DNA of 64,000 nucleotides from a virus. Taxonomy: Duplodnaviria; Heunggongvirae; Uroviricota; Caudoviricetes. Within the stretch, counting starts at the first letter, position 1. Every line of letters starts with the position of its first letter. Both the position numbers and the translations under genes were made by a program. The DNA lies in IMG/VR virus record IMGVR_UViG_3300021399_000097; one strand, 5' to 3'. The notes below the pieces were generated by a model. That model saw only the letters and a program-made list of their open reading frames with translations. It was not told where the DNA came from and did not search any database. Shown one piece after another: positions 46,122 to 49,560 of this stretch.

Positions 46122-46979
46122 ATGGGATTAAATCAATACGATAAAATAGTAGCAAGTGAAATAAATGATTTACGAGCTGCTATAAATACTGAGTTATAGA
46201 GACGTGATAGATATACTTTTACATTTGATAATACCATAAATGCTATTAAAGAAGATGAAATTATTCCTAATATTTGGAATAATTTAATACATCCTTTAAA
46301 TTAGATAAATACTACTATAACAGATTATTCAGAGGTTGCTTAGTACGATATTATTAAAGCACTAATTAAATTATAGATAGCCAATAATGATTATGCATCA
46401 CGGCCATATCGTTAGCCAAGTGGAGAAACAAATAATTCTGCTTGTAATAGTTCTTGTGTTGGTTTATGTACTAGTTGTACAGGAAATTGTACTGGAACAT
46501 GCTCTGGATGCACAGGAAGTTGTACTGGTACTTGCCAAGAAACTTGTACTGGAGCTTGTACAACTGGTTGTTCTGGTTGTACTGGTAGCTGTGAGACAGG
46601 ATGTTTAACTGGATGTTTAGCTGCATGTTAGGATGATTGTTATTGGGGATGTAGTGGTACCTGTTAGGGTTGTGATGGGTGTTCTGGCTGTGGTGATGCT
46701 TGTTCATCAGGATGTAGTGATGCTTGTAGTTCAGGCTGTGGAGGAAATTGTAGCGGAACTTGTAGTCAATATTGTATTTATACTTGTTATGGAACCTGTG
46801 ATGGAAATTGCGATGGAGCTTGTGGAGGAAATTGTAGTAGTAGTTGTACAGGAACTTGTTGGTCTACTTGTTCTCAAGATTGCACTAGTGGATGTAATTC
46901 AACTTGTAAAGGCTGCGGTGGTGGCTGCACTGGAACTTGTTATGGTTCCAATATAAGAGCAAGTTTAGAAGATGAATAA
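46122..46979 (+). CDS. Cys-rich tandem-repeat protein: N-terminal domain of about 105 aa plus about 180 aa of (C-x-x-x)n (7 TAG)
   Basis: AAAGGAGAG SD. Reading through 7 TAG gives CVGLCTSCTGNCTGTCSGCTGSCTGTCQETCTGACTTGCSGC...CKGCGGGCTGTCYG, with about 50 Cys. The track's +ORFs 46387..46608 and 46633..46956 are out-of-frame artefacts. Confidence 0.6.
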
Positions 46980-47003
46980 TAAGAAAGGGGTTTTAATAAT
47001 TTT

Positions 47004-47558
47004 ATGAATAGAATAGATATTTTAGAAATGAAAATTAATATAGCTGAACAAAAGATACCTGATAATTCTTTAATTCAAAAAATTATTTTTGATGAATTAT
47101 TATAGAAAATGAATTGTTATGGATTAGATATTTTATTTATTATAGAAAGATGTAATACTCCTATTATATCAAATATTGATGAAAAAAAATTGTATAATTA
47201 TATAAATGATTTAATAAATAAGATTGCTGAATTATCAGAAAACGAGTATTCAGAAAATGAATTATTATTATTTAAAAAATATATTTTTTATAAATTAGCT
47301 ACAACTTATTTAGATATGGCAGAAAAAAGAGAACAATTTATAAAAGATATAGAAAATGTAATAACAATACCTACTGCGCCTGATACTGCTATTTGGTATG
47401 CTAAAGAAAATTTACGATTAATTTTATTAGATCTGTATACAAGTTTTGGATTATTTGATATTAATAGAGCAAAAGAATTATTAGAAATTGTTAAAGCAAA
47501 TAATACTAAAAGACAAAGATTTGTAATAGATGTCTTAAATCAAGTATTTATGTCATAA
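47004..47558 (+). CDS. hypothetical protein (1 TAG)
   Basis: ORF 47109..47558 extended upstream to an ATG through one TAG. Confidence 0.4.
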
Positions 47559-47597
47559 AAAAAATGGAGACTATTTATATGGTCTCCATTTTTTTTA
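47557..47597. terminator. bidirectional terminator between convergent genes (TGGAGAC..GTCTCCA)
   Basis: Stem flanked by A8 and T9. Overlaps the rSAM stop codon. Confidence 0.6.
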
Positions 47598-48909
47598 TTT
47601 GATCTAATTCTTTCTATGAAATAATCTATAATGCTTTTTTATCTTCTAAATATAAATGAAATCGTTCCGTATCATTATGTTTAAGATAACATTTATTCCA
47701 ATAATAAGCATTGGCCAAAGCTCGTGCCTAATGCATAATACAAATATAGGTTGCTCTATACTAAAAATTACCACTTATCTAATAATTATAAGCCTAACAC
47801 CAAGAACATCCATCAGCAATCTAACAATTAATGCATTCTTCAGTTGATTGATTTAATCTATTAATATTTTTTAAACAAGTAACACAATCAATTTGTTCTT
47901 GATTATTTAAAAAACCCTATTTTGTATTTCCAATAATTATTGGTTTTATCGTAGGCCCTAAGGAAGATTCCATATATCTAATACATGGGTATATATCTCC
48001 TTTGTAGTCTACAGCCAACATACGTCCATTCCCTCCGCACCAATTCTATTCATCATCAATATTTTTGGGTCGGAAATAATGTGATTCAAATAAAGAACAA
48101 TAAATAATTTCTTCTAGATTATTATCAATAATATAATCAGCTAATTGTTTTAACTATTGATAAAATATCTATGCATGTTCTAATTCCCAGCCTTTTTCAT
48201 AAACACAATTCCCATAAATTTCAGTATATCCAAATTTAATAAAATCTTTAATTGCTTTAAAAGTATATTGAATATTTGCAGGGGCCAAAGTTATTTTACT
48301 ACCCATATGACCATGCAATTCTTGAGTAAAATGTTTAACGGCAGCAATCGCTAAATCATAGCTACCTGTTCCATCTGGGAACTTGCGACAACTATCATGT
48401 AGCTCTTTATTGCCATCAATAGTAATATTTAAAGAAATATTATTAAAATATTTTTTTAGAAATGCCTATACTTCAGAATTAAAATATAATGTACCATTAG
48501 ATGAAAAACCTGCCCTCCAATGATACTGCCAAGGATGATTAGCTTCAATAGTAGCTTTCTAAAAATATTCTAAAATCTAATCAATTAATTCTATCTCTAA
48601 AAAAGGTTCTCCTCCAATAAAATCAAGTACAACTCCCAATGTATTTTTTGTATCAATATATTGTTTAGTTTTTTCATTATTTTCTATTAATAAATCAATA
48701 AAATTTTTAGCTACTGAAAATGGCATACGATGAGTCCCTTTATTAATTTGATAACAATAACTGCATCTTAAATTACAATTATCAGTTACTTGAAATGTAA
48801 TACTGGGGACAATAATATTATTATTTTCTTTATTTTTTAACTATATTGATTCTGGATAAAGATTTGCTAACCAATCACTATATTGTGGACTTTTATATGG
48901 CATTTTCAT
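47575..48909 (-). CDS. radical SAM / SPASM-domain enzyme (anSME/peptide-maturase-like; 17 TAG)
   Basis: CNLRCSYCYQ CxxxCxxC cluster. C-terminal CGGNGRMLAVDYKGDIYPC...CINC[TAG]IADGCSWC[TAG]AYNY SPASM Cys cluster. No intact ORF in the track because of the TAG density. Confidence 0.7.
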
Positions 48910-49211
48910 TTTATTTTTTCTCCAGTAATAGTTATAATATTTGTTTTATAATTTAAGTTCCAAGTATAATTAATAAAATTATTAAAAATATATTTTTTTT
49001 CAAGTTCTTGTTTAGCAATTTCAAATGCATATAGTGTATTCTAATAATCTTCTTGATATTGTTTAAATCTTTCAGTAGTTATATCTATATCATCATGAGT
49101 TAAAATATAACTAATTATATTTTTATAGCTCTAACATTCAACGTCAAGCCTTTGAATAAAATTAACAACAGCTTCTGGTATTTCAATGGTAATTTCTTTA
49201 TTTTTTTCCAT
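48906..49211 (-). CDS. small protein, paralog 2 of the pair upstream of the rSAM gene (2 TAG)
   Basis: About 30% identical to ORF 49215..49505; shared ...WNL(D/N)Y... tail. ATGA overlap with the rSAM gene. Confidence 0.4.
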
Positions 49212-49214
49212 CAA

Positions 49215-49505
49215 TTATTCACCATCTTCCATGACGGTAACTATACTTGTACTATAATCAAGATTCCAATTTACATTTTTATCAGCGAAAGTTGGAACGA
49301 TATATTTCTCTTCAAGTTCACCCTTTGCTCGTTCAAAGTCATAAAACTCCATAGTATATTTTTCATTAAGCATTTCCATTCTACCTTCTGGAATATCTAC
49401 TTCATTAGCAAGGATATGAAGAATTAAATCTCTTGTTGCACTTCTTTTTATATCAGCCTTTTGAATTTTATCTTTTAATTCAACTGGTACTTCAATCTTT
49501 GTCAT
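49215..49505 (-). CDS. small protein, paralog 1 (first gene of the rSAM operon)
   Basis: Intact ORF downstream of promoter P16. Confidence 0.45.
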   Translation of the reverse strand: MTKIEVPVELKDKIQKADIKRSATRDLILHILANEVDIPEGRMEMLNEKYTMEFYDFERAKGELEEKYIVPTFADKNVNWNLDYSTSIVTVMEDGE

Positions 49506-49531
49506 TTTTACATACCACCTTTCTATTACAT

Positions 49532-49560
49532 ATTATATCATAAAAAAAACGAAAAGTCAA
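49532..49560 (-). promoter_or_regulatory. sigma70-type promoter P16 (TTGACT, 17 nt, TGaTATAAT) for the rSAM operon
   Basis: Minus-strand motif family. Confidence 0.55.

Follow-up and report, generated by a model that had tools for sequence, protein, structure and literature searches.

A phage form of the CXXX-repeat radical SAM modification system with a predicted cross-linked late protein as its product

The CXXX-repeat radical S-adenosylmethionine (SAM) family has been curated for years, and its target repeat, maturase, and accessory proteins are covered by NCBIfam models TIGR04114 to TIGR04119, by PF27846 in Pfam, and by phrog_1802 and phrog_6085 in PHROGs. In the Bacteroidales, the system comprises a TIGR04115 enzyme, a TIGR04119 maturase, a TIGR04116 small protein, and a TIGR04114/PF27846 target; in Clostridia, AC3_0185-type clusters encode TIGR04118 peptides. 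Here, we analyzed a 64,000-nucleotide stretch of viral DNA (IMG/VR record IMGVR_UViG_3300021399_000097; this whole stretch is called the window), in which the gene for a protein with a long Cys repeat, the target, lies near a convergent operon encoding two small paralogous proteins and a radical SAM/SPASM enzyme (Table 1). We judge it probable that this cassette is a CXXX-repeat modification system in its phage form and that it yields a cross-linked late component, most likely of the tail or baseplate. An earlier note, made from the letters alone, had put the locus forward as a candidate new system; it is not one, because NCBIfam, Pfam, and PHROGs already cover its families. The window instance belongs to an abundant phage variant, apparently undescribed in papers, that would act on proteins of 125 to 891 amino acids (aa) rather than on short peptides. 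Literature searches on the CXXX repeat, TIGR04115 chemistry or biology, phage CXXX proteins, phage radical SAM enzymes with tails or thioethers, and SPN3US radical SAM returned no relevant paper.

Placement of the locus in this family comes foremost from the enzyme, which aligns with model positions 3 to 359 of 359 of TIGR04115 ("radical SAM peptide maturase, CXXX-repeat target family") at 429.3 bits against a cutoff of 350 (E = 1.4e-128) and also matches phrog_1802 (E = 1.9e-56). Scores for the other families compared all fall far below their cutoffs: PapB (NF047865) 167 against 340, CcpM 114 against 500, SCIFF (TIGR03974) 97 against 425, QhpD (TIGR03906) 87 against 453, and anaerobic sulfatase-maturing enzymes (anSME; TIGR03942) 52.3 against 349. 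We therefore rejected assignment as an anaerobic sulfatase maturase on score, which also disposes of the housekeeping enzyme that had been named as an alternative; as a PapB-family ranthipeptide maturase on score and for the few CX3D/E acceptors (8 Asp and 2 Glu); and as a SCIFF/CteB maturase on score and for want of an N-terminal RiPP recognition element (RRE; RiPP, ribosomally synthesized and posttranslationally modified peptide). The nearest solved structure is nonetheless CteB (5WGG; E = 1.6e-42), aligned over CteB residues 93 to 447; because the alignment begins at residue 93, and with only about 35 residues ahead of the radical SAM core, the enzyme lacks the roughly 90-aa RRE found at the N terminus of CteB. 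The CX3CX2C motif (C45/C49/C52) and a complete seven-Cys SPASM set (C291-x12-G-x4-C309, C359-x2-C-x5-C-x2-C371, and C390), all invariant in a five-sequence alignment, predict three [4Fe-4S] sites. In some related loci the radical SAM gene is split by inteins with Hint and LAGLIDADG domains (L034:4792-7191, L063:4825-7212, and L062:5554-7824; also L045 and L061), which interrupt the CX3CX2C cluster motif itself or sit just ahead of the first SPASM Cys.

Pairing of enzyme and target was examined by scanning IMG/VR with an alignment of the enzyme, which found at least 199 viral contigs carrying it; 80 loci were kept. In 73 of these 80, a codirectional CXXX-repeat open reading frame (ORF) is found no more than about 2 kb from the enzyme, and a CXXX-repeat gene lies beside it in 75 once two cases of TAG read-through or contig edges are counted; in one of the five viral loci without the pair, the sequence stops just after the enzyme. 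At 70% identity the enzymes form 40 clusters, and the pair is kept in 37 of them. Two layouts recur, both codirectional: target-(184-aa family)-small protein-enzyme, and small protein-enzyme-target, the former being kept in relatives down to 35% identity. The small-protein family occurs in 81 of 86 loci, the N-terminal domain of the target in 67, where it is found on CXXX proteins only, and the 184-aa family in 24. The substrate-maturase pair proposed in the earlier note thus held up in related genomes and against the TIGR04115 cutoff, and we regard this relationship as very likely. Fortuitous adjacency, in which a housekeeping or auxiliary metabolic enzyme happens to neighbor an unrelated low-complexity Cys-rich ORF, could draw on the separate, convergent transcription units of the window, but it is contradicted by the co-occurrence data: the linkage recurs in the viral loci and also in Bacteroidales and Clostridia genomes, the gene order survives deep divergence, and the enzyme family was itself curated on exactly such linkage. 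We consider it highly improbable.

The phage and Bacteroidales systems share the radical SAM family, with the window enzyme above the curated cutoff, the C-x-x-x target, tight linkage, and, as a remote homologue, the small accessory family. The curated bacterial form, as seen in L002, runs from a Tat-signal CXXX protein through the TIGR04115 enzyme and a TIGR04119 maturase ("CXXX repeat peptide maturase") to a 91-aa TIGR04116 protein ("CXXX repeat peptide modification system protein"). Among the best 80 bacterial loci, TIGR04119 is present in 61, of which 43 are also flagged with a Tat-signal target, mostly from Bacteroidales; the N-domain form accounts for four of the 80, all among the six nearest to the window enzyme. 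No TIGR04119 second maturase was found in the 64-kb window, and L047 is the sole related viral locus to encode one, which sets the phage form apart as a variant architecture within the known system. It differs further in that a three-helix N-domain of about 105 aa replaces the bacterial Tat signal, the target is longer, the form lies in a late or tail module, and an accessory protein of 150 to 220 aa is added in some loci; in the window, this is the 184-aa protein, and the small protein is duplicated. The Clostridia clusters resemble the phage form in their CXXX substrates, related radical SAM core, and TIGR04116-like small protein, but lie outside phage structural modules. These clusters (L100, L111, L161, and similar) represent a third architecture, in which an enzyme of 710 to 728 aa joins a TIGR04115-type radical SAM domain to a TIGR04119-like SPASM half, and the CXXX peptides beside it are only 59 to 102 aa long.

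To the earlier statement that no phage example was known, the IMG/VR contigs are one answer; a second is a distant analogue in cultured SPN3US-like jumbo phages, where two CXXX-repeat ORFs lie beside radical SAM genes (gp100 region to gp103) near virion and tail genes. The best NCBIfam match of the SPN3US-like enzyme is likewise TIGR04115, but at 125.6 bits against the cutoff of 350, and its identity to the window enzyme is about 25%; the cassette also differs in having two radical SAM genes and no detectable N-domain, TIGR04116-like, or g184-like (184-aa family) homologue. In the locus from Salmonella phage SPN3US itself (L169; NC_027402, 135168-146313, reverse complement), the CXXX ORFs, of 130 and 134 aa, lie at 2094-2486 and 2497-2901, upstream of both annotated radical SAM genes; of these ORFs, one is unannotated and the other is annotated in a different frame (gp100, 2570-2905).

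The first 107 aa of the window target are Cys-free; residues 108 to 273, a stretch of 166 aa, then contain 44 Cys. The Cys repeat described earlier is there, although its content had been put too high, at about 50 Cys in about 180 aa with every fourth residue a Cys: 36 spacings are of 4 residues and 7 are of 3. Spacings of 4 make up 84%, whereas 20,000 shuffles averaged 10.7% and never exceeded 33%, and the window holds one long CXXX run and one radical SAM gene. The filler between the Cys is Gly, Thr, and Ser, with 8 Asp and 2 Glu among the 166 residues. In 77 distinct targets, the repeat follows C-[S/T]-G-[G/S/T], with a composition of 27% Cys, 21% Gly, 16% Ser, 12.5% Thr, 5.5% Asp plus Glu, and no Pro; the CxxxD/E motifs mentioned in the earlier note are accordingly rare. 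The target matches a hidden Markov model (HMM) of the N-domain built here (E = 3e-16) and phrog_6085 (E = 3.3e-10); to TIGR04117 it scores 17.7 bits, below the cutoff of 50, a weak HMM support. The CXXX repeat was read directly. We found 222 target homologues, many flagged PF27846, and tblastn of GenBank phages with a typical target gave MT835573 as the sole match.

Invariant positions in the N-domain alignment are E24, R28, and the junction C108-x3-C112-x-G114-x-C116. In an AlphaFold2 (AF2) model of P0002, the closest homologue of the target, the N-domain forms three helices (pLDDT 70 to 88) and no fold is predicted with confidence for the repeat region (pLDDT below 50). Profile searches of the PDB with the N-domain gave coiled-coil noise only, and a Foldseek search of BFVD with its model gave nothing significant. 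The target has no RRxF motif of a Tat signal, its N terminus being the conserved helical domain. Some targets are fusions: those of L026 and L034 have an N-terminal CXXX repeat followed by two PF12810 glycine-rich domains, and P0090 has a GDSL esterase followed by N-domain and repeat. A further CXXX-repeat protein (P0049; 342 aa) ends in a Hint/pretoxin-HINT domain, which suggests that some of these proteins are self-processing.

Neither the Cys-repeat gene nor the radical SAM gene is listed by ORF calling with table 11; both appear when TAG is read as sense, and given this read-through, the two genes and the operon with its two small paralogues lie where the earlier note had placed them. There are 7 in-frame TAG codons in 46122-46979 and 15 in 47575-48909, with no other interruption in either gene, and the gene map of the whole window is coherent once TAG is sense. 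In four standard-code homologues, the TAG sites of the radical SAM gene pair most often with Gln (11 of 55 aligned residues), and two of the sites are Gln in three of the four; TAG is thus probably a sense codon for Gln in the window, as judged from these alignments. TAG density is about threefold higher right of 43.1 kb (13.3 per 1,000 codons) than left of it (4.1 per 1,000). ARAGORN found no tRNA, suppressor or other, in these 64 kb. The window belongs to a 176,465-bp metagenomic contig (ENA ERZ28612961 scaffold_63) from a large gut phage, and public gene calls on the identical ENA contig match the products of 96, 101, 444, 184, and 285 aa. A 9-kb megablast against GenBank phages gave no match.

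The 96- and 101-aa proteins are paralogues (38% identity; E = 2e-19), for which an RRE or PqqD identity had been suggested. They are instead remote TIGR04116 homologues below the curated cutoff, by the following profile comparisons. Neither window protein matches TIGR04116 directly, and 5 of 32 members of their family do; an HMM grown from the window proteins retrieves the TIGR04116 protein of L002 (E = 1.7e-15), and a broad family profile aligns end to end with Bacteroidales TIGR04116 over 85 columns (hhalign probability 93.9%, E = 1.6e-7). A narrow profile from the window clade only is not significant (probability 1.4%, E = 0.037). The AF2 model of the 96-aa protein (pLDDT 93.7) shows a beta-alpha-alpha-beta-beta fold, not the PqqD-type winged helix of three strands and then three helices, and there is no Pfam PqqD match; the RRE/PqqD assignment was rejected. 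PDB profile searches with the small protein gave coiled-coil noise only. Homologues of the 184-aa protein occur between the target and small-protein genes in 24 related loci, with one invariant Trp in the alignment, and the protein has no Pfam, NCBIfam, PHROG, or structure match.

Three characterized systems offer a guide to the chemistry. Thioethers are made from Cys S to C-beta of Asp by PapB, to C-gamma of Thr by CteB, and to Asp or Glu by QhpD (PMC11002830). PapB is the best-scoring characterized family and makes thioether macrocycles on repeated, short-spaced Cys, but its product freyrasin is short, with six links, and PapB joins Cys to Asp or Glu, which are scarce in the phage repeat. 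CteB, the thermocellin enzyme, has the same SPASM architecture and links to Thr, which is abundant in the phage repeats; its SCIFF peptides differ in having six Cys. QhpD offers a proposed functional analogy, since its radical SAM/SPASM thioethers are made in a protein, QhpC of quinohemoprotein amine dehydrogenase, that is retained in a larger assembly; there, three or four Asp/Glu links are placed in an enzyme subunit with no long repeat. Since CteB, PapB, and QhpD form Cys thioethers, as do all of the families that score next after TIGR04115 (PapB, CcpM, SCIFF, and QhpD), the best reading of the product is a late protein cross-linked by many thioethers, and by this analogy we think thioether chemistry somewhat favored. 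With acidic residues rare, the likelier acceptors would be Thr, Ser, Gly, or Asn. The repeat could instead be a metal-binding, Fe-S-binding, or disulfide module, the radical SAM enzyme performing other chemistry such as anSME-like oxidation of Cys or Ser, epimerization, or C-C links. A region that is 27% Cys, with small residues otherwise and hardly any acidic acceptor, would suit such a module, and SPASM enzymes have many known chemistries; the nearest characterized families and the nearest solved structure, however, are all Cys-thioether formers, and the anSME score is 52 bits against 429 for TIGR04115. We regard this alternative as unlikely.

Surroundings and architecture bear on the fate of the product. 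In 50 of the 80 viral loci, one or more tail or baseplate families are encoded no farther than 6 kb from the cassette (minor tail or tail proteins at 35, baseplate wedge at 16, and other tail and baseplate proteins), and in a temperate siphophage the cassette is directly 3' of the tape measure and distal tail genes; the substrate-maturase pairing usually sits among phage tail and baseplate genes. A reverse transcriptase of the diversity-generating retroelement (DGR) type (phrog_1423) is within 6 kb at 15 of the 80 (for example, L025:11805-13106), which fits a variable receptor-binding neighborhood. The window cassette encodes neither a protease nor an exporter, and the product is therefore probably retained as a whole protein; across the 80 loci, too, no protease or transporter gene is conserved alongside. 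A released bioactive molecule of RiPP type (a bacteriocin, a signal, or a host- or competitor-directed factor freed at lysis) would be in keeping with the bacterial relatives, which are secreted, those of Bacteroidales having Tat signals and those of Clostridia being 59 to 102 aa long, and also with the RiPP-core-like disorder of the repeat in AF2 and the function-unknown, rather than tail, neighbors in the window. It sits poorly with the lack of a signal peptide on phage targets and of a conserved protease or transporter, with target lengths of 125 to 891 aa and fusions to large glycine-rich or esterase domains, and with the recurrent tail and baseplate context; the one HExxH gene nearby (45670-45999) is unique to the window. 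Release seems to us distinctly unlikely. Tail context, fusions, and the missing export genes favor a retained, structural, tail-associated product, to the extent that gene neighborhoods and domain content can indicate it. Of the structural, decoration, or host-interaction roles put forward in the earlier note, the structural one is plausible from these neighborhoods, and a place in the virion or tail strikes us as an evenly balanced proposition.

The HExxH metallopeptidase-like gene at 45670-45999 (+ strand; DUF6782, 27.5 bits; phrog_1233) is separated by a hairpin from the downstream target gene. It was tried as a leader peptidase for the cassette and rejected; none of the 80 related cassettes has a homologue of it nearby, and a link of this gene to the CXXX system is therefore improbable.

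Several observations weigh against a phage system that cross-links a tail or baseplate component. The window is the sole locus seen in which the two halves are convergent, not codirectional. Its cassette is not directly among tail genes: function-unknown genes adjoin it, the tail-fiber genes begin 2.7 kb on, at 52218, and DNA-metabolism genes lie between. The PHROGs of the glycine-rich domains fused to some targets are function-unknown families, and the N-domain is absent from the targets of L026 and L034 and, in L008-type loci, from the second gene. Asp and Glu, the acceptors used by PapB and QhpD, make up only 5.5% of the repeats, and a demonstrated reaction for any TIGR04115 member was not found in the literature.

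Under the phage CXXX-repeat system that we favor, the two convergent units, one for the target and the 184-aa protein and the other for the two TIGR04116-like small proteins and the enzyme, would be expressed late in infection, once TAG genes are translatable. The enzyme, which lacks a built-in RRE and is predicted to hold a SAM-binding [4Fe-4S] cluster plus two auxiliary ones, would act on the stretch of 166 aa in the 285-aa target that repeats C-[S/T]-G-[G/S/T]; the small proteins, possibly together with the 184-aa protein, may help by presenting this long substrate. Hydrogen abstraction by the 5'-deoxyadenosyl radical would, as the most likely chemistry, lead to many intramolecular Cys S-to-carbon thioether links, and the product would be kept whole and used as a cross-linked late part, most likely associated with the tail or baseplate. 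More tentatively, and with rather less confidence than in the system itself, we propose that in many tailed phages of gut anaerobes a RiPP-type radical SAM maturase turns the long C-x-x-x repeat into a rod or linker, densely stapled by thioethers, in the tail or baseplate. The HK97 capsid chainmail is a comparison in spirit for an enzymatically cross-linked virion part, the stapled repeat arising instead by radical chemistry. If this is true, RiPP-type radical chemistry builds viral structural proteins, with an enzyme that staples very long repeats, which suggests a route by which gut phages harden exposed fibers against proteases and reductants; TIGR04115 would also gain a function, the first assigned to this family. 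The SPN3US-like phages provide a culturable and genetically tractable analogue.

Table 1 Features of the CXXX-repeat cassette and its flanks (positions in the window)
Feature	Position	Strand	Remarks
Terminator-like hairpin	45986..46010	+	11-bp stem with 6 GC pairs, then T-run; ends upstream gene, before Cys-repeat gene
CXXX-repeat target protein, 285 aa, 7 TAG	46122..46979	+	N-domain 46122-46442; Cys repeat 46443-46940
184-aa accessory protein (g184 family)	47004..47558	+	Cotranscribed with target; family HMM E = 6e-29
Bidirectional terminator-like hairpin (A-tract, stem, T-tract)	47552..47605	.	Between convergent units; overlaps 3' end of radical SAM gene
Radical SAM/SPASM maturase, 444 aa, 15 TAG	47575..48909	-	TIGR04115, 429.3 bits
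TIGR04116-like small protein, copy 2, 101 aa	48906..49211	-	Paralogue of 96-aa protein; family HMM E = 8e-25
TIGR04116-like small protein, copy 1, 96 aa	49215..49505	-	Family profile compared with Bacteroidales TIGR04116 members
Sigma70-like promoter site of small-small-radical SAM operon	49532..49560	-	TTGACT-17-TATAAT with TG, 11/12; consensus match only
Bidirectional terminator-like hairpin	49570..49607	.	15-bp stem, found on both strands; upstream of promoter, ends preceding minus-strand gene

The sigma70-type promoter and flanking terminators of the earlier note are present as consensus or structure matches. The hairpin between the convergent units has a predicted energy of -24.4 kcal/mol (z = -7.5), and none of 200 shuffled sequences was as stable. 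An AGGAGA lies 7 nucleotides 5' of the target ATG.

Farther out on the + strand, small ORFs of 65 and 106 aa (45107-45646) fuse to about 180 aa via TAG read-through at about 45302 and have no family match. The region 43864-45107 encodes a Gly/Asn-rich 268-aa protein with a hydrophobic N-terminal segment (phrog_16490) and a 140-aa protein (phrog_20016, E = 1e-45), both PHROGs being conserved phage families of unknown function. On the other side of the cassette, 52218-63504 (+) holds three very large tail-fiber-like genes with long Ala/Ser/Thr-rich "A-x-S-A" repeat tracts; this region includes a Laminin_G_3 domain at 55267-57171 and a C-terminal "NDYAEFR" motif resembling that of an intramolecular chaperone.

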